Shown here piece by piece: positions 4,322 through 35,035 of a DNA stretch of 35,035 bases. Every line of letters starts with the position of its first letter. Positions within the stretch are counted from its first letter, which is position 1. The stretch comes from Chloroflexota bacterium (lineage in GTDB: Bacteria > Chloroflexota > Dehalococcoidia > Dehalococcoidales > RBG-16-60-22). The stretch spans positions 1 through 35,035 of the forward strand of contig JBDRGD010000020.1 of the NCBI GenBank assembly GCA_043818095.1, in the 5' to 3' direction. A model generated the notes under the pieces. That model saw nothing but the letters and a program-made list of their open reading frames with translations, did no database searches and was not told the origin of the DNA. The position numbers and the translations under genes were made by a program.

Positions 4322-5461
4322 CTAAATTTCCTTCTCTCCTGCCAAACCCAGGGCTTTCTCCCGCGCCCAGGCGTCTGCTTCCAGAATTTGCTCCAGGGCG
4401 GGCTGCGCGATTACCTGGTGCGCCTCAATCACCGCGGCCACCAGCCGGGCAATGTCCGTGAAGCCGATGCGCCCCTTCAGGAAAAGCGCCACCGCCACCT
4501 CGTCCGCGGCACAGAGCACCGCGGGGCAGGTGCCCCCCTTTTCCCCCGCCGCCATCGCCAGCGGCAGGCACGGGAACCGCTCCCTGTCCGGTTCCGCGAA
4601 GTCCAGGGAATCGATTTTTCCCCAGTCCAGCCGGGGTATCGCGGCGTTCTCCAGTCGGTCCGGATAGGTGAGCGCGTGCTGGATGGGCAGCCTCATGTCC
4701 GGACAGCTCAACTGCGCCTTCACGGCACCGTCCGCGAACTCAACCATGGAATGGACGATGCTCTGCGGGTGCACCAGCACCCGGATGCGGTCGTAAGACA
4801 CGCCAAAGAGCCAGTGCGCCTCGATGGTCTCCAGGCCCTTGTTCATCAGCGTCGCCGAATCGATGGTTACCTTTTTCCCCATGCTCCAGGAAGGGTGCCG
4901 CAGCGCCTGCTCCGGCGTTACCCCCGCCAGCTCCTCCGCGGTGGCGTCCCGGAAAGGCCCCCCGGAGGCGGTCAGGACCAGCTGCGCCAGCGGGCTGCGC
5001 TCTCCCCGGAGGCACTGCCAGATAGCGCTGTGCTCGCTGTCCACCGGCAGGATGCGGGCGCCGCTCCGGGTTACCTCACCGGTAATAATCTCCCCGGCCA
5101 TGACCAGCGACTCCTTGTTCGCCAGCGCAATCTGCTTCCCCGCCCGCGCCGCCGCTAGCACCGGGCGCAGGCCGGCACTCCCCGCGGTGGCGACCACCAC
5201 GCAGTCCACCCCGGGGTGGGCGGCAATCTCCTCCAGTGACAGATTGCGGGCGTTGACTCCGGGCAGGCTCTGCCCGTCGGCACAGCCATAAAACTCCGGG
5301 GCGAATTCGCTTATCTGCCGGGACAGCAGTTCCCGGTTGCTTCCGGCGGCCAGCGCCACGACCCGGAAACGTCCCGGCAGCGCGCGTACCACTTCCAGCG
5401 TCTGCCGCCCGATAGACCCGGTGGCCCCGAGGACGGCGATGTTTTTCACCCGGATAACCAC
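4322..5461 (-). CDS. dxr: 1-deoxy-D-xylulose-5-phosphate reductoisomerase
   Basis: LGATGSIG, LANKES, PVDSEHSA, TASGGPF, KVTIDSATLMNKGLE; start uncertain (GTG 5461, 6 nt after TATAAT, or GTG 5449). Confidence 0.96.
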   Translation of the reverse strand: MVIRVKNIAVLGATGSIGRQTLEVVRALPGRFRVVALAAGSNRELLSRQISEFAPEFYGCADGQSLPGVNARNLSLEEIAAHPGVDCVVVATAGSAGLRPVLAAARAGKQIALANKESLVMAGEIITGEVTRSGARILPVDSEHSAIWQCLRGERSPLAQLVLTASGGPFRDATAEELAGVTPEQALRHPSWSMGKKVTIDSATLMNKGLETIEAHWLFGVSYDRIRVLVHPQSIVHSMVEFADGAVKAQLSCPDMRLPIQHALTYPDRLENAAIPRLDWGKIDSLDFAEPDRERFPCLPLAMAAGEKGGTCPAVLCAADEVAVALFLKGRIGFTDIARLVAAVIEAHQVIAQPALEQILEADAWAREKALGLAGEKEI

Positions 5462-5670
5462 GCTTTCATTATAGAACAATGATGAGAGGACTTAAACCGG
5501 GAAGCAAAGAACCTACCTCATTCCCTGTGTCCCATCTCCTGCAAAGAAGAAGACGAATATTATCGTTTAAGAGGGGCGAAGCCCTTTCCGGTAACCTTTC
5601 GCGTAAGCCGAGGTCACCGGCGGGTGAAACACCCTGCAAACGAAGTAATAAAAACCCTGCCCGGGATAGT

Positions 5671-5699
5671 TTGACACATTCAGAGGATGGTGTTAAAAT
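5671..5699 (+). promoter_or_regulatory. strong sigma70-type promoter upstream of the hydrogenase-metVF operon
   Basis: TTGACA(5671-5676)-17 nt-TAAAAT(5694-5699) with extended -10 TG. Confidence 0.8.
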
Positions 5700-5802
5700 G
5701 CTGGTGGCAATCCGAAAATACCTCAGCAAGGCAAGCCTGAGAATCCAAAACGCCGGGTGGCCGAGACTACCGATAACGATGCAGATTAAACGTGCGCGCG
5801 AC

Positions 5803-5831
5803 GCCAGGACTAACCCTCCTGGCTATTTTTT
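5803..5831 (+). terminator. intrinsic terminator-like hairpin inside the operon leader
   Basis: GCCAGGA-7 nt loop-TCCTGGC followed by TATTTTTT. Confidence 0.6.
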
Positions 5832-6024
5832 AACTGGTTACACCTGCCAATCGTCACCCGATTCCCCGATTCACGAGTAAAAGCGGACCAAAAAGTGATA
5901 ACCGGTGAGCAGCATTAAAAGCAGCGATTCGGTCAAGATTCCCCGGGCTGCTCTTTTCTCCCTGCCGATTCTCCCTTCTCCTGCGGGTAGAAGCTGCGCG
6001 CGGTACTAATCTAAGGAGGTGTCT

Positions 6025-6909
6025 ATGGGAAACGCCAAGACCGCGGAGGTCCCCGTAATCTGGGTGCAGTGTGCCAGTTGCACCGGATGCTCCGTCTCCG
6101 TCCTCAACTCGGTGAGCCCCACCATCAAGAATGTCCTCGTGGACGAGGTCATCCCCGGAAAGCACGTCAATCTCCGCTTTCAGGCGACCGTCATGGCCGG
6201 TTCGGGGGACATGGTTATCAAAGCCATGGAGGACACCCAGAAAGAGGTAAAAGGCGGCTACGTCCTCGTGGTCGAGGGTGCTCTCCCCACCGCCGGCAAC
6301 CCCGCCGATTACGGCTCCATCGGGGAGCACGACGGCAAGCCGGTCTCCATGGCGGACCGCGTGGCGAGCCTCGGTAAAGACGCCCTCGCCGTGATTGCCC
6401 TGGGTACCTGCGCCGCTTTCGGCGGCATCGCCGCGGGCAAACCCAATCCCTCCGGGTCCATCGGCGTCCAGGAGCTCTTCCGGCGCCGGAAAATCGCCAC
6501 GCCGCTGGTCAATATCCCCGGCTGCGCCCCCCACCCCGACTGGTTTGTCGGCACCGTCGCCCGTATCCTGCTCCTCGGCCTGCCCGGCGCGGATGAGGTC
6601 GATGATTACGGACGCCCGAAGGCTTTCTACGGGCAGCTGATTCATGAGAACTGCCCCCGCCGCGCTTACTTCGAGGAAGGGAAATTCGCCCGCAAGTTCG
6701 GCGACCCCGGCTGCCTTAACGAGCTCGGCTGCAAGGGCCCGGTAACCTACGCGGACTGCCCCACGAGGCTCTGGAACCACGGCGTCAACTGGTGCATCGG
6801 CAGCGGTTCCCCCTGCATCGGCTGCACGGAACCCGGTTTCCCGGACGCCCTGGCACCATTCTACGTGAAACTGACCGAAGAGGCGACGCCGAATATCGGC
6901 GCCGTCTAG
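6025..6909 (+). CDS. [NiFe]-hydrogenase small subunit, group 1a-like, no Tat signal and no membrane anchor
   Basis: CTGCS, GTCAAFGG, PGCAPHP, HENC, CLNELGCKGP, WCIGSGSPCIGC (Cys in WC implies medial [4Fe-4S]); SD AAGGAGG before ATG 6025. Confidence 0.95.
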   Translation: MGNAKTAEVPVIWVQCASCTGCSVSVLNSVSPTIKNVLVDEVIPGKHVNLRFQATVMAGSGDMVIKAMEDTQKEVKGGYVLVVEGALPTAGNPADYGSIGEHDGKPVSMADRVASLGKDALAVIALGTCAAFGGIAAGKPNPSGSIGVQELFRRRKIATPLVNIPGCAPHPDWFVGTVARILLLGLPGADEVDDYGRPKAFYGQLIHENCPRRAYFEEGKFARKFGDPGCLNELGCKGPVTYADCPTRLWNHGVNWCIGSGSPCIGCTEPGFPDALAPFYVKLTEEATPNIGAV

Positions 6910-6925
6910 AGAGGAGGATGTACGA

Positions 6926-8485
6926 TTGGGCAAGATAGTCATTGATCCGATTACCCGCATAGAAGGCCACCTCAAGATTGAAGCGGTCACCGAGAACGGC
7001 GTCATCAAGGAGGCGCGCAGCTCGGGAACGCTTTTCCGCGGCATTGAGATTATCCTCCGGGGGAGAGACCCCCGTGACGCCCAGCGCTACGTCCAGCGCA
7101 TCTGCGGTGTCTGCCCCACCAGCCACTCCACCGCCGCTACCCTGAACCTGGACAGCGCCTTCGGTATCTCCGATAAGATACCGGACAACGGCCGGCTGCT
7201 GCGCAACCTCATCCTGGGGGCGGCGCACATCGCCGACCATATCCTGCACTTCTACCACCTGGCGGCGCTCGATTACGTGGATGTCGCCAGGGTGGCGAAA
7301 TACGAGGGCAACGACCCCGAACTCAACTCCGTCAAGAGGTTCATCGAGCGCGGGGCGCTGGGGCCCTTCGTCCCCCGCTACGAGGGCGATTACCGCCTGC
7401 CCGATGACGTCAATAACCAGGCCGCCGCCCACTACCTGAAAGCCCTGGAGATGCGGCGCAAAGCCCAGGAGATGGTCTCCATCTTCGGCGGCAAGATGCC
7501 CCACAACTGCGCCATCATGCCCGGCGGGGTCACCGAGGTCCCCACCGTGGACAAGATAGCATCATTCCTCTGGAGGCTCAACGAGCTCCGAGACTTCATC
7601 GATACCGTTTACGTGCCGGATGTCCTCGCCGTCGCCGGGGTCTATAGCGATTACTTTGAAATCGGCAAGGGCTGCGGCAACCTCCTCTCCTACGGCAGCT
7701 TTGAACTGGAGACCGCCAACCCGGACTACACCACCCGCAACCGCCTCTTCAAGCAGGGCACCATCTCCGCCGACCTGAAGCCGGGCAAGCTGGACACGAA
7801 CAGGATTGCGGAAGAAGTGAAACACTCCTGGTATGCTGACGCCACCGCGGGACGGCACCCCTCGCAGGGAGCCACCGAACCCCAGCCGGGGAAGAAAGAC
7901 GCCTACTCCTGGGTAAAGTCACCGCGCTATGACGGCAAGGCGTACGAGGTAGGCCCCCTGGCGAGAATGGTGGTCACCTACGCCAGCGGCGACACTAAAG
8001 TGAAAGCGATGGTAGACTCCGTGCTCGCCCACTTCAAGGCTTCCCCCGCCGCCCTCTTCTCCGTGCTGGGACGCCACGCGGCGCGGGCGCTCTACTGCAA
8101 GCTGGTGGCGGACACCATGCCGGAATGGCTGCTCCAGGTAAAGCCCGGCGCACCGGTTTACATCGATTACGAGATTCCGGAAGAAGCCACGGGCATGGGG
8201 CTCGTGGACGGCGCCCGGGGCGCCCTGGGGCACTGGATTGAAATCAAGGACCACAAGATTGCCAACTACCAGTGCGTCGTCCCCAGCACGTGGAACCTCT
8301 GCCCCCGGGACGACAAGGGACAGCCCGGACCGGTGGAACAGGCCCTCGAGGGCACGAAAATCAGGGACGAGAGCAACCCCTATGAAATCGTCCGCATCGT
8401 CCGCTCTTTCGACCCCTGCCTGGCCTGCGCCATCCACCTGGTCACCCCGAAGGGCAGAGACTTAGGGAGATTTCAGGTCTGCTAA
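6926..8485 (+). CDS. [NiFe]-hydrogenase large subunit, group 1a-like
   Basis: IDPITRIEGH, L1 RICGVCPTSH, L2 SFDPCLACAIH with Cys (TGC, not Sec) plus 15-aa cleavable tail; GAGGAGG SD and TTG start. Confidence 0.96.
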   Translation: MGKIVIDPITRIEGHLKIEAVTENGVIKEARSSGTLFRGIEIILRGRDPRDAQRYVQRICGVCPTSHSTAATLNLDSAFGISDKIPDNGRLLRNLILGAAHIADHILHFYHLAALDYVDVARVAKYEGNDPELNSVKRFIERGALGPFVPRYEGDYRLPDDVNNQAAAHYLKALEMRRKAQEMVSIFGGKMPHNCAIMPGGVTEVPTVDKIASFLWRLNELRDFIDTVYVPDVLAVAGVYSDYFEIGKGCGNLLSYGSFELETANPDYTTRNRLFKQGTISADLKPGKLDTNRIAEEVKHSWYADATAGRHPSQGATEPQPGKKDAYSWVKSPRYDGKAYEVGPLARMVVTYASGDTKVKAMVDSVLAHFKASPAALFSVLGRHAARALYCKLVADTMPEWLLQVKPGAPVYIDYEIPEEATGMGLVDGARGALGHWIEIKDHKIANYQCVVPSTWNLCPRDDKGQPGPVEQALEGTKIRDESNPYEIVRIVRSFDPCLACAIHLVTPKGRDLGRFQVC

Positions 8486-8487
8486 CC

Positions 8488-8994
8488 GTGGAGGAAATGC
8501 TGACGGCAAACAAGTTGCGCAAGGTCGTCGTTCTGGGCGTGGGTAACCTGCTGCTCCAGGACGAGGGCGTCGGGGTGCACGTCATCCAGGCGCTGGAAGG
8601 AACAACGCCCCCGGAGGCGACCTCCCTGGAGATTATCGACGGGGGGACGCTGCCGGACATGGTCCCCCTGGCAGGCGTGGACAAACTCATCGTCGTGGAC
8701 GCCGTGAAAGGCGGCGGGAAACCGGGGAGCGTTTACCGCTTCCACCCCGAGGACATCAGCCTGGAGCGCGGCACCGCCACCTCCCTCCACCAGCTCAACC
8801 TCCTGGAAAACCTGGGCATCATGGAACATCTCGGGCAGAAGCCCGCGGAAGTGGTCATAATCGGCGTCGAGCCGGAAGAGATAACCTGGGGCCTGGAGCT
8901 TTCCCCGCGACTTCAGCAATGCCTCCCCCGGATTGTTGAAGTCGTCAACGGAGAGATTCGCTCTCTGCCCCGAGAAAGGAGTGAAAAGAGATGA
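8488..8994 (+). CDS. hydrogenase maturation endopeptidase (HyaD/HybD family)
   Basis: LGVGNLLLQDEGVGV, IDGGT, IVVDA, SLHQL motifs. Confidence 0.93.
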   Translation: MEEMLTANKLRKVVVLGVGNLLLQDEGVGVHVIQALEGTTPPEATSLEIIDGGTLPDMVPLAGVDKLIVVDAVKGGGKPGSVYRFHPEDISLERGTATSLHQLNLLENLGIMEHLGQKPAEVVIIGVEPEEITWGLELSPRLQQCLPRIVEVVNGEIRSLPRERSEKR

Positions 8995-9683
8995 TAATTT
9001 CCGAGCAAAAGCCTTTCCCGGAAATCCTCAAGTCACTGGAAGGGGAACAGCAACTCTTCATCGTCGGCTGCAAGGGCTGCGCGGAAGCCTGCCACACCGG
9101 CGGCGAGGCGCAGGTCCGGGAGATGAAGGAGAAACTGGAGCAGGAGGGCAAGAAAGTCGTCGGCTTCACCGTCGTCGATTTCCTCTGCGACAAGGCCCTG
9201 GTCAAGTTCCGGCTGCGCGCCCATGAAGACGCGGTCAAAGCCGCCGATTCCCTGCTGGTGATGACCTGCGGCCTCGGCGTGCAGGCCACCGCCAAGGTGG
9301 TGGACAAGCTGACCCACCCCGCCTGCAACACCGTCAACACCGGCGGCGCCCGCGGCGAATGGCGCGGCGAAGAGCGCTGCCTGGAGTGCGGCGACTGCGT
9401 CCTGGACTACACCGGCGGCATCTGCCCGCTGACCTCCTGCACCAAGAGCCTTATCAACGGCCCCTGCGGCGGCACCAGGGACGGCAAGTGTGAGTACGAG
9501 CCGGATACCCGGGACTGCGGCTGGCACCTCATCTACGAGCGCCTCCAGAAGCTGGGCCAGCTCGACCGGATGCGGGCGATGCTCGGCGCCAAGGACTGGA
9601 GCAAGATGCGTCCGCCCAAGGAGCTGCGGGGGACCATCATGTGGGCGCTGGAACGACCGGAGAAGGAGGTTGTCCGCAGATGA
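8991..9683 (+). CDS. metV: methylene-THF reductase Fe-S/Zn subunit MetV
   Basis: GCKGCAEAC and CLECGDC-GGICPLTSCTKSLINGPCGG-CEY-DCGW (MTHFR C-terminal Cys-rich family); directly before metF. Confidence 0.9.
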   Translation: MIISEQKPFPEILKSLEGEQQLFIVGCKGCAEACHTGGEAQVREMKEKLEQEGKKVVGFTVVDFLCDKALVKFRLRAHEDAVKAADSLLVMTCGLGVQATAKVVDKLTHPACNTVNTGGARGEWRGEERCLECGDCVLDYTGGICPLTSCTKSLINGPCGGTRDGKCEYEPDTRDCGWHLIYERLQKLGQLDRMRAMLGAKDWSKMRPPKELRGTIMWALERPEKEVVRR

Positions 9684-10546
9684 ACATTGCCGAAATGGCC
9701 AAAAATGGCAAATTCGTCGTAACCGCCGAGGTAGGCCCCCCCAAGGGCACGGACATCGCGGAGATGCTCGCGGACGCGGAGCTGATGCGGGGACGGGTGC
9801 ACGCCATCAACGTCACGGACCAGCAGAGCTCGGTGATGCGCCTCGGCTCCCTGGCGACCTGCCGCCTGCTCAAGGAAAAAGACCTGGAACCCATCTTCCA
9901 GGTGACCTGCCGCGACCGCAATCGCATCGCTCTGCAGTCTGACCTGCTCAGCGCCGCGGTGCTGGGCGTGGAAAATGTCCTCTGCCTTACCGGCGATTTC
10001 GTCGCCCTCGGCGACCATCCCCAGGCGAAGGGCGTTTTCGACCTCGATTCGGTATCCCTCCTTCTTACCGCGAAAGCCCTCGAAGGGGGTAAGGACCTCG
10101 CCGGTAACGACCTCAAGGGCAGCCCCAGGTTCTGCCTGGGGGCGGTGGTCACCCCCGGCGCCGAGCCCCTGGAACCGCAGATTATCAAGATGGAGAAGAA
10201 GGTCAAGGCCGGGGCGCAGTTCTTCCAGACCCAGGCGGTCTACGACCCCGCCCAGTTCGAGGAGTTCATGAAGGCGGTCGCCTACCTGAACGTCCCCGTA
10301 TCGATGGGCATCGTCATGCTCCGCTCCGCCGGTATGGCGCGCTTCATGAACAAGAACGTGGCGGGGGTCCACGTGCCGGAGAACCTTATCGAGGAGATGG
10401 ACAAGGCGGAGAATAAGGGGCAGAAGAGCATCGAGATTGCCGCCCGCCTCATCAACGAGATGAAATCGATGTGCCAGGGCGCGCACATCATGGCCATCGG
10501 CTGGGAGAAAAAGGTGCCCCAGGTGCTGGACGCCGCCGGCCTTTAG
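9680..10546 (+). CDS. metF: 5,10-methylenetetrahydrofolate reductase
   Basis: TAEVGPPKG, INVTD, TCRDRNRIALQ, LTGD, KVKAGAQFFQTQ; ATG 9680 overlaps the metV stop; AGGAGG SD. Confidence 0.95.
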   Translation: MNIAEMAKNGKFVVTAEVGPPKGTDIAEMLADAELMRGRVHAINVTDQQSSVMRLGSLATCRLLKEKDLEPIFQVTCRDRNRIALQSDLLSAAVLGVENVLCLTGDFVALGDHPQAKGVFDLDSVSLLLTAKALEGGKDLAGNDLKGSPRFCLGAVVTPGAEPLEPQIIKMEKKVKAGAQFFQTQAVYDPAQFEEFMKAVAYLNVPVSMGIVMLRSAGMARFMNKNVAGVHVPENLIEEMDKAENKGQKSIEIAARLINEMKSMCQGAHIMAIGWEKKVPQVLDAAGL

Positions 10547-10569
10547 CCTTTAATAAAACCGTATTCACG

Positions 10570-10607
10570 GATTGGAGCTGTCCGCGCGGCGGCTCCAATC
10601 TTTATTT
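10570..10607 (+). terminator. intrinsic terminator after metF
   Basis: 13-bp stem GATTGGAGCTGTC/GGCGGCTCCAATC (with G-U pairs) followed by TTTATTT. Confidence 0.7.
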
Positions 10608-10659
10608 CAGACATCTCATTTCCCCATCCCGAAAGCGCCGTGCTACAATAGGAATGGTG

Positions 10660-12996
10660 ATGAAAACACCGCAGGTTTCTGCCGTGAAGCGCCGGCCCGC
10701 CGGGAAATCCCGTCTCCTTATCAGCATCCGCGGCGTGGTGCAGGGGGTAGGCTTCCGTCCCTTCGTCTACCAGCTGGCGAGCAAGTACCGCCTGAACGGC
10801 TGGGTGCGCAACACCTCCGGCGATGTCCAAATTGAGGTGGAGGGAGCGCCCGCCCGGCTGGACCGCTTTCTGGCGGCGCTGCCCGCCGCGGCACCGCCCC
10901 TCGCCCGCATCGAGCACCTGACCGCTACCCCGGCGAAACCGGCCGGGTACGACCGCTTTGAGATACAGGAAAGCGTCCCCGAAGAAGGCAGGTACCAGCT
11001 GGTCTCCCCGGACATCGCCACCTGCCACCAGTGCCGGGACGAGGTCCTCTCTCCGGGAGACCGCCGTTACCGCTACCCCTTCACCAACTGCACCAACTGC
11101 GGCCCCCGCTTTACGATTATCGAAGATATCCCCTACGACCGACCCAAGACGACGATGCGCCGCTTCCAGATGTGCCCCGATTGCCAGCGGGAATATGAAA
11201 ACCCCCGTGACCGGCGCTTTCATGCCCAGCCCAACGCCTGCCCACGCTGCGGGCCCCGACTGGAACTGGTGACCGCCCGCGGCACTATTATCACCGGGGA
11301 CGCGATTACCCGCGCCGCCGAGTTCCTGTGCGAGGGAAAAATCGTGGCGGTGAAAGGGCTGGGCGGCTTTCTCCTCGCCTGCGACGCCACCAGCGCAAAA
11401 GCGGCCAAACGCCTGCGGCGGAGAAAGCGGCGCGGCGGCAAGCCCTTCGCCCTGATGCTGGCGACTATCGATGAAATCAAACAACACTGCGTCGTCAACG
11501 CGGCGGAGGAGGCGCTGCTCACCTCGCCGCAGTGCCCCATCGTTCTCCTGGAGCGCCGCCCGGACAGCGGCATCGCGGATACCGTCGCCCCCGGCCTGAA
11601 ATACCTGGGGCTGATGCTCCCCTACACGCCCCTCCACCATCTCCTCTGCCGGGAAGCGGGACGCCCCCTGGTGATGACCAGCGGCAACCTCAGCGAGGAG
11701 CCCATCGCCAAAGATAATGACGAGGCGCGGCGCCGCCTGAGCGGCATCGCGGACTATTTCCTCCGGCACGACCGGGACATTTACTCCCGCTACGATGACA
11801 GTGTGACGATGGTCGTCGCCGGTAAGCCCCAGGTCCTGCGGCGCGCGCGCGGCTACGCCCCCCACCCCGTCCGCCTCCCCTTTCCGGCGAGGCAGGTCCT
11901 CGCCTGCGGGGCGGAGCTGAAAAATACCTTCTGCCTGACGCGGGACGAATACGCCTTTGTCAGCCAGCACATCGGGGACATGGAAAACCTGGAAACGCTG
12001 GCGCACTTCGAGGACACCCTGGCGCTCTACGAGAAGCTCTTCCGCATCAAGCCCGAGGCGGTGGCCTGTGACCTGCACCCGGACTACCTGCCCACGAAAT
12101 ACGCCCGGGAGCTGGCGGAAAAGACCGGCCTGCCCCTTTTCTCCGTCCAGCACCACCACGCCCACGCCGTGGGCTGCCTGGCGGATAACGGCGCACGGGG
12201 ACCGGCCATCAGCGTCAGCCTGGACGGCACCGGCTACGGCACGGACGGTGCCATCTGGGGCGGCGAGTTCCTCATCGCTGACGAGGTAAAATTCGAGCGC
12301 CGGGGCTGTTTTCAATACGTTCCCCTGCCCGGCGGCGCCGCCGCGATTACCCATCCCTACCGCATGGCGACCAGCTACCTGCTCAGCACGCTCGGCGGGG
12401 ACGCACTGGACAAAGGCCTCCCCTTCCTGAGAGACCTCGCCGACGGAGAGACGGCTTTATTACAACAGCAGATAACCCGGGGCATCAACGCCCCGCTCAC
12501 CTCCAGCTGCGGGCGGCTCTTCGACGCCGTGGCCGCCCTGAACGGCTTCCGCGGCAGGATTGCTTACGAGGCCGAAGCCGCCATCGCGCTGGAGATGATG
12601 GCGGACGAGTCCGAAACTGCCGCCTATCCTTTCGATATCAAAAAAGAAGCAGGCGTCCACCGGGTGCTCTTCCCGGAGCTTTTCGCCGCTATCCTCAGCG
12701 ACCGGAAACGCCGCGTCCCGCGGGGCGCCATCGCCATGAAGTTTCACAACACCGTGGTGCGCATCGTCACGGAGATGTGCCGGAGGCTTTCCCGGGAGTC
12801 CGGACTGAAAACAGTCGCGTTGAGCGGCGGCGTCTTTCAGAATCGATTGCTCCTGAAGCTGACCGTGCCCGCGCTGGAAAAGACCGGCTTTACCGTCCTG
12901 ACCCACCGGCAGGTGCCCGCCAACGACGGCGGCATTTCCCTGGGACAGGCGGTGGTTGGCCACTACCGACTGGAGAGAGGTGAAACATGTGCTTAG
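10660..12996 (+). CDS. hypF: carbamoyltransferase HypF
   Basis: GVVQGVGFRPFVY, two CxxC-x18-CxxC fingers, VQHHHAH, PANDGGISLGQ; start probably ATG 10654 or 10660 behind TGCTACAAT. Confidence 0.96.
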   Translation: MKTPQVSAVKRRPAGKSRLLISIRGVVQGVGFRPFVYQLASKYRLNGWVRNTSGDVQIEVEGAPARLDRFLAALPAAAPPLARIEHLTATPAKPAGYDRFEIQESVPEEGRYQLVSPDIATCHQCRDEVLSPGDRRYRYPFTNCTNCGPRFTIIEDIPYDRPKTTMRRFQMCPDCQREYENPRDRRFHAQPNACPRCGPRLELVTARGTIITGDAITRAAEFLCEGKIVAVKGLGGFLLACDATSAKAAKRLRRRKRRGGKPFALMLATIDEIKQHCVVNAAEEALLTSPQCPIVLLERRPDSGIADTVAPGLKYLGLMLPYTPLHHLLCREAGRPLVMTSGNLSEEPIAKDNDEARRRLSGIADYFLRHDRDIYSRYDDSVTMVVAGKPQVLRRARGYAPHPVRLPFPARQVLACGAELKNTFCLTRDEYAFVSQHIGDMENLETLAHFEDTLALYEKLFRIKPEAVACDLHPDYLPTKYARELAEKTGLPLFSVQHHHAHAVGCLADNGARGPAISVSLDGTGYGTDGAIWGGEFLIADEVKFERRGCFQYVPLPGGAAAITHPYRMATSYLLSTLGGDALDKGLPFLRDLADGETALLQQQITRGINAPLTSSCGRLFDAVAALNGFRGRIAYEAEAAIALEMMADESETAAYPFDIKKEAGVHRVLFPELFAAILSDRKRRVPRGAIAMKFHNTVVRIVTEMCRRLSRESGLKTVALSGGVFQNRLLLKLTVPALEKTGFTVLTHRQVPANDGGISLGQAVVGHYRLERGETCA

Positions 12997-13235
12997 CGGT
13001 ACCCGCCCTGGTCAGGTCCGTGCACGGTCACGAAGCGGAGGTGGACATCGGCGGCGTGCGCCGGAACATCAGCATTTTCCTGACCCCCCAGGTCCGGGCG
13101 GGGGATTACGTGCTGCTGCACACCGGCTACGCCATCAACATCATTGACCAGGCGGAGGCGGCGGAAACGCTCCGGCTGCTCAATGAGCTCGCCGATGCCG
13201 CCGACGTCCTCGACGGGGAGATAACCGGTTCATGA
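12987..13235 (+). CDS. hypC: hydrogenase chaperone HypC
   Basis: MCLAVPA N-terminus, GDYVLLHTGYA. Confidence 0.96.
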   Translation: MCLAVPALVRSVHGHEAEVDIGGVRRNISIFLTPQVRAGDYVLLHTGYAINIIDQAEAAETLRLLNELADAADVLDGEITGS

Positions 13236-14326
13236 AGTTCGCCGCCGAGTACCGCGACCCCGCGCTGGCCGAGCGCCTGCTCGCGCAGATACGCCGCCAC
13301 GCCACCAGGCCCATGCGTTTCATGGAGTTCTGCGGCGGCCACACGGCGAGCATCGTGCGGCACGGCACCCGCCAGCTCCTCCCCCCGAATATCGAGATGC
13401 TTTCCGGGCCCGGCTGCCCCGTCTGCGTCACCGCCAATGCCGACCTGGATAGGGCCATCGCCCTCGCCGGAGTGCCGGACGTTATCCTGACCACCTTCGG
13501 AGACATGCTCAAGGTCCCCGGAAGCTACTCCAGCCTCCAGCAGGCGAAGGCGGATGGCGGTGATATCCGCATCGTCTATTCCGCGCAGGACGCGTTACGG
13601 ATTGCCCGGAAGAACCCCCGGAAAGCGGTCGTTTTTCTGGGCATCGGCTTCGAGACCACCGCCCCGACGATTGCCGCTTCCGTCCTCCAGGCGGAGGAGG
13701 AAAAGATTGAGAACTACGGCGTGCTTTCCCCGCACAAGCTCTGTCCCCCGGTGATGAAAGCCCTGCTGGACTCGGGGGAAATAAAGCTGGACGGCATCGT
13801 CTGCCCCGGCCACGTCAGTGCGGTCATCGGCGCGGAGCCCTATGATTTCATCCCCCGCGACTACGGTATCGCCTGTGTCGTTTCCGGCTTCGAGCCGCTG
13901 GACATTCTCCTCTGCGTGGACATGCTGGCGCAGCAGATAATCGCGGGCAAGCCTGCCGTGGAAATCGCCTACCGCCGGGGTGTCACCCGGCAAGGCAACC
14001 GGCTCGCCCTGGAAATCATGTCCCGCGTCTTTACCCCCGGGGACGCTGCCTGGCGGGGTATCGGCACTATCCCGGGGAGCGGGCTGGAATTCAAGCCGGA
14101 GTACCGAAGGTTCGACGCCTCCGCGGCTTTTCCTCTGAAACTGAAGCCCCCCCGCGAGCCTAAAGGCTGCCTCTGCGGGGAAATCCTGCGGGGGGTCAAG
14201 ACCCCTCTTGACTGCGCCCTTTTCGGGAACGCCTGCCGCCCGGAGCAGCCGGTAGGTCCCTGCATGGTTTCGGCGGAAGGCAGCTGCTCCATCTACCACC
14301 TTTACGGAGTGGAACGTGGCGGATAA
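13232..14326 (+). CDS. hypD: hydrogenase formation protein HypD
   Basis: EFCGGH, GPGCPVC, GFETT, PGHVS, C-terminal Cys cluster. Confidence 0.97.
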   Translation: MKFAAEYRDPALAERLLAQIRRHATRPMRFMEFCGGHTASIVRHGTRQLLPPNIEMLSGPGCPVCVTANADLDRAIALAGVPDVILTTFGDMLKVPGSYSSLQQAKADGGDIRIVYSAQDALRIARKNPRKAVVFLGIGFETTAPTIAASVLQAEEEKIENYGVLSPHKLCPPVMKALLDSGEIKLDGIVCPGHVSAVIGAEPYDFIPRDYGIACVVSGFEPLDILLCVDMLAQQIIAGKPAVEIAYRRGVTRQGNRLALEIMSRVFTPGDAAWRGIGTIPGSGLEFKPEYRRFDASAAFPLKLKPPREPKGCLCGEILRGVKTPLDCALFGNACRPEQPVGPCMVSAEGSCSIYHLYGVERGG

Positions 14327-15320
14327 GATACTGCTGGCGCACGGCAGCGGCGGCAAGCTCAGCCATGAGCTGATTACCCGCACCCTCCTCCCGGCTCTCG
14401 CCAATCCCCTGCTGGAGAAGCTGGACGACGCCGCCTCTTTCGAGCTGAAAGGGACGCTGGCGTTCACCACCGACAGCTACGTCGTCAGTCCCATTTTCTT
14501 TCCAGGCGGGGATATCGGCAAGCTGGCGGTCTGCGGCACGGTCAACGACCTGGCGATGTGCGGGGCAAAGCCGCTTTACCTCAGCCTTGCGCTGATTATC
14601 GAGGAAGGGCTGCCCGTGAAGGACCTGGAACGGGTGCTGGCGTCCATCCGGAAAACGGCGGACGCCGCCGGGGTGAAGATTGTGACCGGGGACACCAAGG
14701 TGGTGAACCGGGGCAGCGCGGACCGGATATTCATCAACACCGCCGGCATCGGTGTCGTCCCGGAGGGGGTGCATGTTTCCGGCTCTCAGGCGCGCCCCGG
14801 AGACAGGGTCATCCTCAGCGGCGGCATCGGGGAGCACGGCATCGCTATCATGAGCCGGCGCGAGGGACTGGAGTTCTCTGTCCCCGTCGCCAGCGACTGC
14901 GCTCCGCTGAACGGGCTGGTCGCCGCCATGCTGAAAGCCGCGCCCGATATCCGCTGCCTGCGGGACCCTACGCGCGGGGGACTCGCCGGCACCCTGAACG
15001 AGTTCGCCGGGCAGTCAAATGCCGGTATCCGCATCGTCGAAGCGGAAATACCGGTTAAGGAATCGATTCTCGCGGCGTGCGACCTGCTGGGGCTGGACCC
15101 GCTCTACGTGGCGAACGAGGGCAAACTCGTCGCGGTGGTGCCGCCGGCAAAGGCCGAGGCGGTGCTCGCGGCGATGCGCCGCCATCGTTACGGCAGGGAC
15201 GCTGCCATCATCGGAGAGGTTACCGCGGAGCACCCCGGCAGGGTCGTCATGACCACGCGCCTGGGTGCCACGCGGATTGTGGACATGCTCACCGGGGACC
15301 TGCTCCCGAGGATCTGCTAG
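14316..15320 (+). CDS. hypE: carbamoyl dehydratase HypE
   Basis: LAHGSGG, FTTDSY, GTVNDL, DPTRGGL, terminal PRIC. Confidence 0.97.
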   Translation: MADKILLAHGSGGKLSHELITRTLLPALANPLLEKLDDAASFELKGTLAFTTDSYVVSPIFFPGGDIGKLAVCGTVNDLAMCGAKPLYLSLALIIEEGLPVKDLERVLASIRKTADAAGVKIVTGDTKVVNRGSADRIFINTAGIGVVPEGVHVSGSQARPGDRVILSGGIGEHGIAIMSRREGLEFSVPVASDCAPLNGLVAAMLKAAPDIRCLRDPTRGGLAGTLNEFAGQSNAGIRIVEAEIPVKESILAACDLLGLDPLYVANEGKLVAVVPPAKAEAVLAAMRRHRYGRDAAIIGEVTAEHPGRVVMTTRLGATRIVDMLTGDLLPRIC

Positions 15321-15331
15321 CGTCGCTCCCG

Positions 15332-15592
15332 TCAGGAGTGCTCTTCTTCTCCCACAGCCACCTCGCCCATCCTGGGTAAAGTCAGCGGGTTCTTTTCCCT
15401 GTTACGGGGTGCGGGTGGGACAGCTTGCGGGACAATATTCATAAATTCCCGCCGCTCTCCACACCGCTTGCAGGTCCCGACGCTGGTGGGGCCGTTCGGA
15501 CTCTCGATAACCCAGAAATGAGCGCAGGTCTCGACCGGTGCATATTCGGCAGTTGATTGCTCAACCTTTTTTTCTTTTGTTTTGGTAGGCAT
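15332..15592 (-). CDS. small putative Zn-ribbon protein of unknown function
   Basis: GGAGGT SD before ATG 15592; CAHFWVIE...GTCKRCG (C-H-C-C ligand set). Confidence 0.75.
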   Translation of the reverse strand: MPTKTKEKKVEQSTAEYAPVETCAHFWVIESPNGPTSVGTCKRCGERREFMNIVPQAVPPAPRNREKNPLTLPRMGEVAVGEEEHS

Positions 15593-15649
15593 CACGCACC
15601 TCCAAACTGGATTCATAAAAATATTTTAGGCCAGTCCCGTATTCATGTA

Positions 15650-15665
15650 TGCGACTTTTGTCCCA
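15650..15665. promoter_or_regulatory. CRP-type box upstream of the Zn-ribbon gene
   Basis: TGCGA-CTTTTG-TCCCA, centred ~-41.5 relative to the minus-strand -10 TAAAAT (15623-15628). Confidence 0.6.
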
Positions 15666-15739
15666 TTAAAAGAACGTAAATACGAGTAAAAGGATAGGAA
15701 TAATTAGATACCCGGTGGTGATATCAGGACCGGGGGCGT

Positions 15740-15949
15740 TCAGCCCTCTTCAATGACGATTTCAAAGGGGCAGCTAATCGCCCCGTAGGGACAGGCCTCT
15801 TCGCAGATGGTGCACCATTCCTCGTCGCTGCAGTCCTTGACGACTACCGCCACGCCGCCATCCAGCTGGATAGCGCCGCATTCACAGACACTAAGACAGA
15901 CACCGCAGCCAGTACATTTTTCCGTGTCTACTACCAGCCACGCCGTCAT
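15740..15949 (-). CDS. 2[4Fe-4S] ferredoxin
   Basis: CTGCGVCLSVC and CSDEEWCTICEEACP; GGAGGAGG SD before ATG 15949. Confidence 0.9.
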   Translation of the reverse strand: MTAWLVVDTEKCTGCGVCLSVCECGAIQLDGGVAVVVKDCSDEEWCTICEEACPYGAISCPFEIVIEEG

Positions 15950-16019
15950 AGCCGGACCCTCCTCCACTTTATTAAAGCACCAACCAACCACATCTTATTC
16001 ACAGCACCCGCTCTCTGTC

Positions 16020-16035
16020 TGTGACCTTTGTCTCA
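16020..16035. promoter_or_regulatory. CRP-type box upstream of the ferredoxin gene
   Basis: TGTGA-CCTTTG-TCTCA (one mismatch to TGTGA-N6-TCACA), centred ~-42.5 from the minus-strand -10 TAAGAT (15992-15997). Confidence 0.7.
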
Positions 16036-16704
16036 GGCGAGGACACCGGCGATACCCTGCAACAGCTTCAGATCGGTTATCACGATACGGTGTCTCTCCA
16101 GCCGGATGGCTTTATCCGTTTCCAGGGTTTTCAGGGAACGCCCTACCATTTCCCGCGCCGTCCCCGCGATTGCCGCCATCTCCTGCTGGGTAAGCCGCGT
16201 CACCGGGTGCTGGCCGTCGCCCCCGTATTCCAGCAGTATCTTGGCAATCCTGCCGGTAACATTCTTGAAAGAGAGGTCCTCCACCAGCGAGACGAGATGC
16301 GCCACCTTCTCCGAGAGCACCTTGATGATGTTCCCGGCAAACTGCGGGTAGTCCCGGAAGACCGCCTCCAGGTCACTCTTCTTGATGCCGTAAAGCGTCA
16401 CCGGACCCAGCGCTTCCGCGCCGGCAAGATTGGTCTGCCCGCTAAACACGGGCACATCGTTGAAAGTCTCCCCGGGCCGGACCAGCTCGAGAATCTGCTC
16501 TTTGCCCTCGGCGGAGGTCTTGAAGACCTTGACCACGCCGGTGACCACGAAGTACAGTACCTCCGCCGGCTCGCCCTCGAAGAGGATAATCTCGCCCCGC
16601 TCCGCCGTCTTTTCCAGAACGAACCTGGAGACCGCGGCGTTCTCCGCCTCTCCCAGACCGGAGAAATAGGCGGACTTCGCCAGAAAAGCGTTGAGAACTG
16701 CCAT
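16033..16704 (-). CDS. Crp/Fnr-family transcriptional regulator
   Basis: cNMP-type beta-roll (EGEPAEVLYFVVTGVVKV...PGETF) and HTH LTQQEMAAIAGTAREMVGR; start ATG 16704; upstream TTGCCG-17-TATAAT. Confidence 0.92.
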   Translation of the reverse strand: MAVLNAFLAKSAYFSGLGEAENAAVSRFVLEKTAERGEIILFEGEPAEVLYFVVTGVVKVFKTSAEGKEQILELVRPGETFNDVPVFSGQTNLAGAEALGPVTLYGIKKSDLEAVFRDYPQFAGNIIKVLSEKVAHLVSLVEDLSFKNVTGRIAKILLEYGGDGQHPVTRLTQQEMAAIAGTAREMVGRSLKTLETDKAIRLERHRIVITDLKLLQGIAGVLA

Positions 16705-16795
16705 ACTTTTACACGCTTCGGACCGCGTCCGATGATAGATTATAGCAATTCCGAGCAGATTCGGCAAAGTGACGCCGGCAGGCAACCCGCCAGGC

Positions 16796-17494
16796 TTACT
16801 CTTTCGGCTGAAAGAAGTAACCCACGCCCGGCTCGGTGATGACATAGCGCGGCACGTTCGGGTTCGGCTCTATCTTGCGGCGGATATGGGCGATGTAGAT
16901 GCGCACGTAGTCCACGTCGTCGATATACTCCCAGCCCCAGACCTTCTCCAGTATCTGCTGGTGAGTGAGGACCGACCCGGCATTCTCCACCAGCAGGACC
17001 AGCAGGCGGAACTCCCGCGGCGTCAGCTTTATCCGCTCCCCGTTCACCAGTACTTTACGCTCGGTGACGTCCACGGTAAGGTAATCATCCTGAAAGCTGA
17101 TGCGCGCCTTCTTCTCCCGGTAGTCCGGCAGTTCCGCCCGGCGCAACACCGCCCGCACCCTGGCCACCAGCTCACGGTTCCCCACCGGCTTCAGCAGGTA
17201 CTCGTCCGCCCCGTATTCCAGCCCCCGGACGATGTCGTCCTCGGTGCTCCGCTTGCCGGTAATCATGATCACGGGCACGTCGGAGACCTCACGGATGCGG
17301 CTGCACGTCTGCCAGCCGTCCATACCGGGCATCACCACGTCCAGCATGACTATGTCCGGCTTGCGTTCGTACAGGAGACGGAGGGCCTCCTGCCCGCTCC
17401 TTACTGCCAGGACCTCGTAGCCCTTGTCCTGAAGCACCTGCTCCGCCAGGCGGAGAAGGGCGGGCTCGTCATCGGCAATCAGTACTTTTTTCAA
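16796..17494 (-). CDS. OmpR/KdpE-family response regulator
   Basis: REC (IADDE, LDVVMPG, KPV) plus winged helix (LTPREF...EPGVGY). Confidence 0.95.
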   Translation of the reverse strand: MKKVLIADDEPALLRLAEQVLQDKGYEVLAVRSGQEALRLLYERKPDIVMLDVVMPGMDGWQTCSRIREVSDVPVIMITGKRSTEDDIVRGLEYGADEYLLKPVGNRELVARVRAVLRRAELPDYREKKARISFQDDYLTVDVTERKVLVNGERIKLTPREFRLLVLLVENAGSVLTHQQILEKVWGWEYIDDVDYVRIYIAHIRRKIEPNPNVPRYVITEPGVGYFFQPKE

Positions 17495-17511
17495 CGTTCT
17501 TCACTCTTCCC

Positions 17512-17886
17512 TTATCGACGCCCCCCCAGCATTCCCGCCACCATCAGGGGCAGCTTCCGGGTATCAATCGGCTTGGAAATATAGGAAGTGCAGCCCGCCT
17601 CGAGGAACCTCTCCCGGTCTCCCTTCATGGCGTAGGCCGTCACCGCAATGATGGGCACCTGCCGGAGCTCCGGGTCCTGGCGCAGCCGCCGGGTAACCTC
17701 AAGGCCGCTCATCTCGGGCAACTGTATGTCCATGATAATCAGGTCCGGCCTTTCCCGCTGCGCCGTCTGCAAAGCCTCCGGGCCGTCCCCGGCTTTCACC
17801 AGGGCGTAACCGCCCGACTGGAGAACCATCTCCATGAGGCGCATGTTCTGCGGATTGTCCTCGACAATCAGTATCTTCTTTTTCAG
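17512..17886 (-). CDS. single-domain response regulator (DivK-like)
   Basis: ILIVEDN, MDIQLP, IIAVTAYAMKGD, YISKP; probable CTG start at 17886 behind AAGGAG. Confidence 0.88.
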   Translation of the reverse strand: MKKKILIVEDNPQNMRLMEMVLQSGGYALVKAGDGPEALQTAQRERPDLIIMDIQLPEMSGLEVTRRLRQDPELRQVPIIAVTAYAMKGDRERFLEAGCTSYISKPIDTRKLPLMVAGMLGGRR

Positions 17887-17896
17887 CGTCTGCTCC

Positions 17897-19069
17897 TTAC
17901 CCGGATTTTCCCCCGGCTTTCTCCGCCAGCGGCAGCGTGAAGCTGAAGCGGCTGCCCTTACCCTCCTCGCTTTCCAGCCGCATCCGCCCCCCGTGCTTTT
18001 CCACAATCTGCCGGGCGATGGTCAGCCCCAGACCGGTCCCACCCTTCTCCCCTGCCCGGGGGTCATTAAGCTGGCAGAAGGGCTCGAAAATCCTCTCCTG
18101 GTGCGGCACGGGGATGCCGATGCCGTCATCGCTGACGGTGATACGCGCCCATTTTCCCTCCCGCGCCACGCCCACGCTCAGGTTCCCGCCGTCCGGGGTA
18201 AACCGGCTGGCGTTGCTGAGAAGATTAATCAGCACCTGGCGCACCTTGGACTTGTCCGCGTTGACATCGGGCAGGTCAGGCTCGACGGTGACCTTGAAGC
18301 TCTGCCCCTTGAGGGAAAGCATCGTCTTCGTCGTCCGGGACAGGGCGTCCAGTAACCCCTGCAGGGAAAACCTGGTCATGCGCAGTTCCAGCTTGCCGGA
18401 CTCTATCTTGGAGAGGTCGAGGATTTCATTGATCAGGTCCAGCAGGTGGCGGCCGCTGCCCCGGATATCATGAAGGCACTGCTGCTGCGCCCCGTTAATC
18501 CTTCCCGGCACCTCGTCCAGCAGCAGCTCGGCGAAGCCGATGATGACGTTCAGGGGGGTGCGCAGCTCGTGGGACATGTTCGCCAGGAACTCGGACTTCG
18601 CCCGGGTGGCGCGCTGCAGTTCCACGTTAGCAGTATTCAGCAGCTTGTTGGAATGCTGCAGGTCATCGACAAGGCGCTTGTTCTCCCGCAGCAGCCGCTG
18701 GTGTTTCAGGGCGTTCGCCAGGGTTGTTTTCAGTTCGTCGGGATTCACCGGCTTGACGAAATAGGCGTAGGCGCCCTGGTTGACGGCGTCCACCGCCGTT
18801 TCCACGCTGGCATAGCCGGTCATCATGATGACGGGGGCATCCGGGTTGATTTCCTTGGCGATTTCCAGGATTTCCATGCCGCCGATGTCCGGGAGACGGA
18901 TATCCGTAATAATCGCCTGAAAAGAGTTATGCCGCACCAGCTCCTGCGCCGCCGCTCCGGAACCGACGGCAAGCACCCGGTATCCGGCGTCCTCCAGGAT
19001 ACCGCTGAGGGTAGCCCGGGCGCCCGCCTCGTCCTCGACGACGATTATTTTCCCTTCGGCCCGCATCAC
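17897..19069 (-). CDS. cytoplasmic hybrid kinase REC-HisKA-HATPase
   Basis: N-terminal REC (TDIRLP), H-box [14 protein letters not shown]-box NLLSNA, G-boxes DDGIGI and GTGLGL. Confidence 0.94.
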
Positions 19070-19794
19070 TTTTCCCGCACCGCGATGTTTTCCACCAGTT
19101 TAATCACGCTCTCCATCTCAAAGGGCTTGCGGATACAGGTATAGGCGCCCTGGTTGACAGCCCGCTCCATCATCTCCTCCTCGCTGTAGCCGGTCATCAT
19201 GATTACCGCCGCCCGCGGGTCCAGCTTCTTGACCTCTTCAAAGGTCTCCACTCCGTTCATGTCCGGCATGCGCACGTCCAGGAAAATAATGTCGTAATGC
19301 CTTTCCTGGACCATCCTGATGGCTTCACCGCCGTCCGCGGCCGTGGCTACGCGGTAACCGCGGTCCTCCAGCATCACTTTCAGGGTCTCCCGGTCACCGA
19401 ACTGGTCGTCCACCACCAGGATGAGGACATGCTCACTGAGCAGCTCGTCAATGAGGGCGACGATTTTGTTGATGTCGAACGGCTTGTAGACCACGGCATA
19501 GGCGCCCTCCGCCAGGGCTTCTTTTACCAGGTCCTCCACGGAATACGCGGTCATCATGATGACCGCCGCCTCCGGGTCTATTTTCTTCACTTCCCGGAAG
19601 GTCTGCACGCCGTTGATTCCGGGCATCTTGATATCCATGAAAATAACGTCGAAATGCTGCCGTTTCACCGCAGCGATTGCCTGATAGCCGTCCTCCACCG
19701 TGACCACGCCGTGCCCCTTGTCCTCCAGGATGCCGCCCAGCGTCAGGCGGATGCTGCGCAGGTCATCAACGACCAGGATATTCGTTTTAGCCAT
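19066..19794 (-). CDS. tandem two-receiver-domain protein
   Basis: Two intact REC domains (MDIKMPG; LDVRMPD), no output domain. Confidence 0.92.
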
Positions 19795-21259: not shown

Positions 21260-21272
21260 ATTACGGCCCTCC

Positions 21273-34805: not shown

Positions 34806-34832
34806 AGAGTCTAATGCAAGTTTAATTAATAG

Positions 34833-35035
34833 TTACTTACTGAAATGGGCATCGCAATTATTGCAATGATAATATTCTCTTGGTTGGGAAGGAGATGATT
34901 GGAGGCTCTCAATTTTTTGGATTGACTTATTCCATTTGGCTTCACGAATTACATTTCGGCTGTAACATTTTGGACACTTTATTTTATTGGGGTGGTGGTC
35001 TCCCGATAATATGAGTTCAGCTTCGTCTAATATAT
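34833..35035 (-). CDS. 3' end of a cargo gene with C-terminal Zn ribbon (truncated by window end)
   Basis: Own translation, open from the window edge: ILDEAELILSGDHHPNKIKCPKCYSRNV...YYHCNNCDAHFSK*. Confidence 0.6.
   Translation of the reverse strand, partial: ILDEAELILSGDHHPNKIKCPKCYSRNVIREAKWNKSIQKIESLQSSPSQPREYYHCNNCDAHFSK

Follow-up and report, generated by a model that had tools for sequence, protein, structure and literature searches.

A cytoplasmic group 1a-like [NiFe] hydrogenase encoded with MetVF suggests a hydrogen-driven methylene-tetrahydrofolate reductase in Dehalococcoidia

The stretch of DNA analyzed here, called the window throughout, comprises 35,035 nucleotides (nt) of contig JBDRGD010000020.1 (positions 1 to 35,035, forward strand) from GCA_043818095.1, the metagenome-assembled genome (MAG) of a Chloroflexota bacterium in the class Dehalococcoidia. 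Five consecutive genes on its plus strand encode the small (hydS) and large (hydL) subunits of a [NiFe] hydrogenase, a maturation endopeptidase, and the MetV and MetF subunits of a methylene-tetrahydrofolate (methylene-THF) reductase. Comparative sequence analysis suggests that in this module the oxidation of H2 is very likely coupled, in one way or another, to the reduction of methylene-THF. With less certainty, we think it probable that the five genes encode a soluble, cytoplasmic H2:methylene-THF oxidoreductase, which would function as one complex with direct electron transfer from HydS to MetV.

The hydS gene (6025-6909; PF14720 and PF01058) begins at an ATG preceded by GGAGG, with an in-frame GTG upstream at 6019. 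It is followed by hydL (6926-8485), which scores 545 bits against PF00374 and 733 bits against NF033181 (cut-off 600), and then by a HyaD/HybD-type maturation endopeptidase (8488-8994; PF01750), which at 128 bits against TIGR00072 (cut-off 47) belongs to the HyaD/HybD/HycI family. The last two genes are metV (8991-9683; PF12225, 105 bits), for the Fe-S subunit of a MetVF-type methylene-THF reductase (MTHFR), and metF (9680-10546; PF02219, 126 bits), for the flavin-binding catalytic subunit, which is distantly related to the solved MTHFRs 1V93 and 3APT. Read directly, the junctions are 16 nt between hydS and hydL, 2 nt between hydL and the protease gene, and ATGA overlaps at both protease/metV and metV/metF, with a GGAGG-like site 5′ of the downstream gene at every junction. 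The tight packing claimed in a preliminary description of this DNA, which was made from the sequence alone, is therefore correct.

The hydrogenase is of a periplasmic type but carries no signature of export. The HydL translation contains the nickel-ligand motifs RICGVC and DPCLAC, with cysteine and not selenocysteine in the C-terminal DPC..C motif, and ends in a 15-residue extension after the histidine for processing by the protease. Among solved structures, HydL is closest to [NiFe] and [NiFeSe] enzymes of the periplasmic Desulfovibrio type (466-428 bits), and HydS to the [NiFeSe] small subunits 1CC1 and 4KL8 (269 bits). The cysteine and histidine cluster ligands of HydS align with those of 1CC1 and 4KL8, occupy columns that are invariant over 63 orthologues, and include an additional medial-cluster cysteine within N-W-C, suggesting that the medial cluster is [4Fe-4S]. 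Membership in the Mvh-type group 3c is not indicated, as the VhuA model gives 100 bits against a cut-off of 800. Following the HydDB definition of subgroup 1a, a twin-arginine translocation (Tat) signal and a periplasmic location are expected, and the window HydS has neither trait. Against the signal-cleaved, mature chains of 1CC1 and 4KL8 it aligns from residue 7 onward, with only six open codons before the ATG; no residues extend past the end of the alignment, and neither a Tat motif nor a C-terminal membrane tail is present in the protein. We consider "cytoplasmic group 1a-like" a fair label for the enzyme, as judged from its nearest structures and the NCBIfam models.

Among related enzymes, the export features are lost where metVF is present. 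We read the entire upstream stop-to-stop frame at each locus and counted complete N-termini only. A twin-arginine motif was found in 0 of 68 metVF-linked small subunits as compared with 6 of 6 unlinked ones (RRGFL). The unlinked proteins also have a tail of 44-74 residues with a hydrophobic helix (47-63 residues in the six with RRGFL), whereas the linked proteins end at most 12 residues past the alignment. Two unlinked sister enzymes, from genomes G009 and G033, have SRRDF and TRRDF motifs together with tails and lack metVF. Loss of the Tat motif and tail accompanies metVF linkage without exception among the loci read. The G009 enzyme comes from the same taxonomic family as the window and is Tat-positive, and its large-subunit gene has a TGA at the DP-U position, so it is likely a [NiFeSe] selenocysteine enzyme. 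At this locus (L036; G009:C4, 9970-15007), about 2.6 kb lie between the small- and large-subunit genes.

The linkage itself is widely conserved. A search of 40 relatives led to 20 regions, 14 of which contain an orthologue of at least 50% identity. In 11 of the 14, metV lies right after the hydrogenase, as does metF wherever the contig permits; the protease gene intervenes in two of these, as in the window, and not in the other nine. The exceptions (G009, G033 and G039) have the protease and lack metVF, and metVF is found in none of the six regions with a 43-44% identical paralogue. We then considered the 80 nearest loci on public contigs, taking one genome per species (65-84% large-subunit identity). 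The metV gene is immediately 3′ of the large-subunit or protease gene in 69 of these, and metF follows within 2.5 kb in 61 of the 69; of the remaining eight, all but L051 are cut short by the contig end. In four Anaerolineae-type loci the order is metV-hydS-hydL-metF with about 2 kb before metF, which brings the metVF-linked total to 73 of 80. The other seven, labeled Aminicenantes, Acidobacteriota or 'Clostridia', are without metVF and have the order hydL-protease-hydS. The protease gene is missing from 26 loci, and in the 21 that were checked metV starts 13-25 nt past the large-subunit stop, the exception being L108 at about 300 nt. Across the three gene orders, the pairing is kept down to 65% large-subunit and about 52% MetV identity.

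In an even sample of 401 genomes from the class, pairing large subunits with MetV by their listed coordinates showed the two to be adjacent in at least 39 genomes from 16 families, with three more cut by contig ends; this is a lower bound, since 117 further MetV matches lie outside the matches listed. In one family of complete, small genomes (f10), all 12 of 12 members have an enzyme of 59-63% identity and 0 of 12 have MetV; these enzymes may correspond to the Hup hydrogenases of cultured organohalide respirers. Outside the phylum, six MAGs labeled Syntrophaceae, Thermodesulfobacteriota or 'delta' hold the whole cassette, which looks like the result of its transfer between phyla. The preliminary description had interpreted the operon as an H2-driven MetVF module and had expected the gene order to recur in other genomes. 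The conserved synteny, together with the loss of Tat signals that follows metVF linkage, supports that interpretation on comparative grounds, and the computational checks named in the description all gave favorable or neutral outcomes.

Phylogenies, inferred with FastTree only, place the linked enzymes together. Of the linked rows in the tree of 89 large subunits, 73 group as a single clade with a Shimodaira-Hasegawa-like support of 96 and one more is left unresolved beside it; the nearest outgroups are Tat-positive enzymes. Linkage needs two changes on this tree, of which the well-supported branches force only one. In the MetV tree, copies located directly after a hydrogenase cluster together, with three changes needed and at least one forced by well-supported branches. 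Cysteine columns are invariant across 63 hydrogenase-linked MetV sequences. The MetF partners fall into two sequence types, one like that of the window (32 loci) and the other like the MetF copy of the HdrA-containing locus described below (33 loci), with the four loci of alternative gene order counted. This fits a contact with the hydrogenase that is made by MetV and not by MetF.

A contact between HydS and MetV was also suggested by structure prediction, with weak support. The modeled complex has a median interface score (ipSAE) of 0.49 against 0.00 for the best of three controls, the partners have a predicted local distance difference test score (pLDDT) of at least 83, and the runs share at least 96% of contacts. 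The preliminary description had offered such a model as a way to judge the wiring, and in this respect its proposal passed, albeit weakly. A profile search of the PDB gave no match to a MetV relative, so the pass is not the memory of a solved complex. Residues conserved specifically in the linked clade occur near the expected exit for electrons, with Y215, E218 and K220 of HydS lying between the distal-cluster ligands H207/C210 and C230/C236, and further ones, Y280 and K282, at the C-terminus. Translational coupling of the five genes likewise gives indirect support for contact. Gene fusions provide a parallel. Among 42 MetV homologues of greater length, roughly 30 are RnfC-like-MetV fusions, indicating that donor modules attach to MetV, and the donor-metV-metF gene order found here matches the RnfC2 type. 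The RnfC-like, NADH-binding module is fused directly to MetV in many proteins (P0009-P0040, P0022 set); other fusions are one 882-residue protein joining a GltD/pyridine-nucleotide-disulfide oxidoreductase to MetV, and MetV-MetF proteins of about 545 residues. The AlphaFold2 model of MetV alone has a mean pLDDT of 80.6 and a predicted template modeling score of 0.81. Foldseek gave no PDB match at E up to 0.001, the weak ones being generic alpha/beta folds (periplasmic binding proteins), and hhalign detected no relationship between the MetV alignment and the MvhD of the same MAG (probability 0.2).

We propose the following path for electrons. HydSL, a group 1a-type enzyme descended from periplasmic uptake hydrogenases that would since have lost the Tat signal and membrane tail, would oxidize H2 at its Ni-Fe site in the cytoplasm, and the electrons would travel through the three [4Fe-4S] clusters of HydS. 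From the distal cluster they would pass to MetV, the proposed entry and docking subunit with its own Fe-S centers, and from MetV to the flavin of MetF, which would convert methylene-THF into methyl-THF and so supply the Wood-Ljungdahl pathway in its methyl branch. The assembly of the four proteins into one complex, the direct step from HydS to MetV and the direction of H2 uptake are what we infer in this scheme. Energetically, the potentials given in PMC8760232 are -414 mV for H+/H2 and -200 mV for methylene-/methyl-THF. By arithmetic from these values, electron transfer from H2 to methylene-THF yields about -41 kJ/mol, in agreement with the earlier claim that it is exergonic, and stays so down to about 1e-7 atm H2. 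This makes uptake the plausible direction and H2 evolution from methyl-THF an implausible one.

The genome provides a destination for the product. The MAG (1.86 Mb, 160 contigs, 95% complete) encodes acetyl-CoA synthase (ACS) on contig C40 with cdhD, DUF3786 and nuoEF, and formyltetrahydrofolate synthetase (FTHFS) on contig C10, while searches of the 95%-complete assembly found neither of the MetH/MetE domains PF02574 and PF01717. Of the two sinks first suggested, the Wood-Ljungdahl methyl branch is favored, given ACS and FTHFS, the missing MetH/MetE domains and the cooC gene beside the module in related loci; methionine synthesis is the less likely. The window hydrogenase is the only one detected, with a single PF00374 match in the MAG and no [FeFe] hydrogenase found. 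A second candidate on contig C82, the MAG's single PF00346 protein, was rejected as a NuoD-like protein without the Ni-binding CxxC. A separate, hdrA-linked metVF locus, the existence of which the preliminary description had left as a question, was found on contigs C137/C59 (L006). Its order is HdrA - NuoG-like - NuoE - NuoF - MetV - histidine kinase - MetF - two response regulators, so that the kinase gene separates metV from metF. In a single-cell genome from deep-sea Chloroflexi, Sewell et al. (PMC5736913) described two sets of metVF, one of them with the layout seen on C59. Contig C135 (L126), with a cluster resembling MvhD/FlxD-FlxC-FlxB-FlxA, appears to join the start of C59.

Around the core module, the neighboring redox genes differ between lineages. 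A cooC homologue is found beside it in 19 of 80 loci, most of them within the order cdhD-nuoE-nuoF-cooC-module-DUF3786-fdh. L056 (2399-16471), for example, reads cdhD-nuoE-nuoF-cooC-hydS-hydL-protease-metV-metF-DUF3786-formate dehydrogenase fusion, and 18 loci are similar; the fusion is a 1366-residue protein in which a 2Fe-2S domain is joined to a GltD-like flavoprotein and to a formate dehydrogenase of the molybdopterin type. Upstream of the module are etfB-etfA in 7 of 80 loci and a gene for a CCG Fe-S protein in 12 of 80, and HdrA/NuoEFG genes (hdrA-like) lie upstream of hydS in 3 of 80. In a protease-less clade of Dehalococcoidia, L105 (2345-6535) has etfB, an etfA fused to a ferredoxin domain and the gene for a 656-residue CCG-domain Fe-S protein directly upstream of hydS, an arrangement shared by L062, L068, L085, L087, L107 and L112, and these Etf/CCG genes may offer a further route for electrons. 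The window and its nearest relatives have the bare core without flanking redox modules.

Several points weigh against a single complex with direct wiring. Linkage and the loss of export may trace to one old event, in which case the many loci are not independent replicates. The MetF partner is of two types, and the varied flanking modules may mean that in many organisms the working complex is larger and has no direct HydS-MetV transfer. For the model, 58 of the 80 solved complexes used as a reference reached the pass mark, as did 2 of the 110 mismatched pairs, and scores of 0.60 or less include only 7 of the 80 solved complexes and both of the passing mismatches; a pass in this weak range is wrong more often than right unless the prior is high. 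No hydrogenase-MetV fusion occurs among the 42 longer MetV homologues, which is itself weak evidence. The window MetVF is also a second, H2-linked copy beside the HdrA-NuoEFG-linked MetVF, and a hydrogenase that feeds this step alone cannot by itself sustain growth on H2 and CO2.

The transcription signals belong with these points. The preliminary description had placed a single promoter before the operon and a terminator after metF. The only sigma-70-like promoter candidate in 5300-16500 is at 5671-5699 on the plus strand (TTGACA, 17 nt, TAAAAT, with a TG; 11 of 12 matches). It does exist as claimed, however, it is about 320 nt upstream of the hydS start, and one such site is not above the 1.9 expected by chance. 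Between it and hydS is a hairpin that resembles a terminator and is followed by six U (5803-5823, plus strand; 7-bp GC-rich stem, -12.2 kcal/mol, z = -3.2), which could be an attenuator of the operon, the end of a small RNA of about 125 nt, or a chance occurrence. After metF, a strong hairpin at 10569-10601 on the plus strand (14-bp stem, -22.8 kcal/mol, z = -4.0, with none of 200 shuffles equally good) is the likely operon end, although its U-tail, reaching to 10611, is weak, and terminator-like sites overall number 10 against 10.5 expected by chance. An internal promoter that might drive metVF separately was sought in the sequence of the operon and none was found. Rfam gave no matches for the whole window at the gathering threshold or for the leader (5480-6040) at E up to 1, leaving a riboswitch explanation for the long leader unsupported, and blastn of the leader against 80 related loci gave no match.

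The best-surviving alternative, to which we give a modest chance of being correct, is that the enzymes are co-regulated and not complexed. The hydrogenase would reduce soluble ferredoxin or another small carrier, and MetVF would be a ferredoxin-dependent type II reductase, as reported for Clostridium ljungdahlii. It is established thermodynamics that ferredoxin is poorly reduced by H2 at the pressures found in the environment, and such a route would waste the advantage of a high-potential acceptor. Type II MetVF is described as accepting reduced ferredoxin in vitro (PMC8760232), and both the weak support for the HydS-MetV model and the missing hydrogenase-MetV fusion are in keeping with a free carrier. 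Gene organization points the other way: metV stays close to the large-subunit stop where the protease gene is missing, the pairing has survived wide divergence and an apparent cross-phylum transfer as one cassette, and no ferredoxin gene accompanies the cassette in the window.

Electron bifurcation, which we regard as unlikely, would couple the exergonic drop from H2 to methylene-THF to an endergonic step in which a second H2 reduces ferredoxin or a different low-potential acceptor. The enzyme could be bare HydSL-MetVF or the same proteins with NuoEF, HdrA or EtfAB. It would put to use about 41 kJ/mol that is otherwise dissipated, and families of bifurcating flavoproteins adjoin the module in many loci (nuoF 19/80, etfBA 7/80, hdrA-like 3/80). 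In addition, the sole hydrogenase detected is found in a genome whose carbon monoxide dehydrogenase (CODH)/ACS needs low-potential electrons. The window operon, though, is without HdrA, NuoF and Etf, and our sequence analysis identified no bifurcating flavin site. Type II MetVF uses ferredoxin in vitro, and PMC8760232 proposes a second acceptor only for the Hdr-containing type IV. Marginally less likely still is the specific version in which the minimal four-subunit HydSL-MetVF is a flavin-based bifurcating enzyme, the sole hydrogenase supplying both reductant for the methyl branch and low-potential electrons for CODH/ACS, with the forms flanked by NuoEF, HdrA or Etf as elaborations. If this version is right, it would give the methylene-THF reductase step, in a minimal form, the role in energy coupling that has long been sought for it.

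Reverse operation, with methyl-THF oxidized and H2 evolved during syntrophic oxidation of acetate or methyl groups by a reversed Wood-Ljungdahl pathway, seems very improbable to us. The cassette does occur in MAGs labeled Syntrophaceae, and a reversed pathway is discussed for syntrophic acetate oxidizers (PMC10689502, PMC6895022). In this direction the reaction costs about 41 kJ/mol under standard conditions and without energy input needs H2 below about 1e-7 atm, while the models presented in PMC10689502 rely on membrane-driven reverse electron transport, which is impossible for a soluble enzyme. Lastly, a meaningless adjacency, due to chance or historical gene order, could stem from a single ancestral event but is scarcely credible when 73 of 80 loci retain the pairing at the divergence given above, in three gene orders, with the protease present or absent, and in 16 class families plus a second phylum.

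Directly past the hairpin after metF are the maturation genes hypF (10654-12996; TIGR00143), hypC (12987-13235; TIGR00074), hypD (13232-14326; TIGR00075) and hypE (14316-15320; AIRS/AIRS_C), all on the plus strand, and upstream of the operon are dxr, rseP and ispG on the opposite strand. A tRNA-Ser (gga) called by ARAGORN at 14042-14133 lies inside the hypD coding region and is probably a false positive. The region 3′ of the hyp genes (16033-21523) encodes a Crp/Fnr-type regulator (16033-16845, minus strand), an OmpR-type response regulator, hybrid histidine kinases and a CheR methyltransferase, which are possible regulators of the hydrogenase locus. At the far end (33849-35035), the final kilobase has a G+C content of 0.40, down from about 0.6, and lies beside a gene for a phage-type integrase with a helix-turn-helix (33849-34805); the contig probably ends here at the margin of a mobile element. 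Families of cytochrome b, Hdr, MvhD and RnfC are not represented among the window open reading frames scanned, some small ones being outside the scan, consistent with what had been claimed for this DNA.

The module combines traits of several known systems. It shares with the periplasmic group 1a [NiFeSe] and [NiFe] enzymes (1CC1, 4KL8, 2WPN) and with the Tat-positive sisters (G009, G033 and f10) the cluster ligands, the four-cysteine medial cluster and a large subunit processed by a protease. Unlike these relatives, which are partnered by cytochromes or a respiratory complex, the window enzyme has neither a Tat signal nor a C-terminal helix, uses cysteine in place of selenocysteine, has its own residues near the distal cluster and is encoded with MetVF. 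In MvhAGD-HdrABC (group 3c) and in the hydrogen-dependent CO2 reductase of acetogens, a cytoplasmic hydrogenase is wired to a C1 reductase without a free carrier, as predicted for the window. Those systems differ in using a group 3c [NiFe] and an [FeFe] hydrogenase, with heterodisulfide/ferredoxin and CO2 as the respective acceptors. Mvh and Hdr are mentioned in PMC7325909 and PMC8760232.

Acetogen MTHFRs are divided in PMC8760232 into four types, namely MetF alone, MetVF, RnfC2-MetVF and HdrCBA-MvhD-MetVF, and membrane complexes of Rnf-MetVF or Ech-MetVF are hypothesized there. As in type II MetVF of C. ljungdahlii (PMC8760232, PMC8515935), metV and metF are side by side and the Fe-S subunit would feed the flavin subunit. 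Type II enzymes draw in vitro on reduced ferredoxin in free form and are not encoded with a hydrogenase, whereas in the window a [NiFe] hydrogenase occupies the position of the donor module. A dedicated electron-input subunit joined to MetVF is also the arrangement in type III RnfC2-MetV-MetF of Acetobacterium woodii (PMC8760232), however, the input there is an NADH-oxidizing flavoprotein and here would be an H2-oxidizing Ni-Fe enzyme. Type IV, HdrCBA-MvhD-MetVF of Moorella thermoacetica and Sporomusa ovata (PMC8760232, PMC9430772), similarly places MetVF within a larger redox complex. The operon and the scanned window reading frames lack RnfC, HdrA/B/C and MvhD, which sets the module apart from types III and IV. 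Washed membranes of S. ovata reduce methylene-THF with H2, for which PMC9430772 proposes a route from periplasmic, Tat-exported, cytochrome-b-linked hydrogenases via quinone, in contrast to the cytoplasmic hydrogenase of the window. A full-text literature search turned up no account of metVF encoded together with a soluble [NiFe] hydrogenase, though subscription journals or supplements may hold one, in line with the preliminary view that this input module is not known to have been described. We propose as new an H2-oxidizing input module for MetVF and, from its sequence, a hydrogenase of group 1a descent whose location and partner are both new.

The electron donor of methylene-THF reductase, and whether energy is conserved at this step, has been an open question in acetogens for decades, and none of the four types given in PMC8760232 is a hydrogenase-MetVF. 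For group 1 hydrogenases in Chloroflexi that do not respire, the redox partner was likewise called unclear by Hug et al. (PMC3971608). The module described here, found in roughly one in ten of the sampled Dehalococcoidia species genomes, offers one answer to both questions. If the proposal is correct, it would represent a fifth type of MTHFR and a compact, H2-driven C1 reductase, and would allow abundant subsurface Chloroflexota to use H2 down to very low partial pressures.

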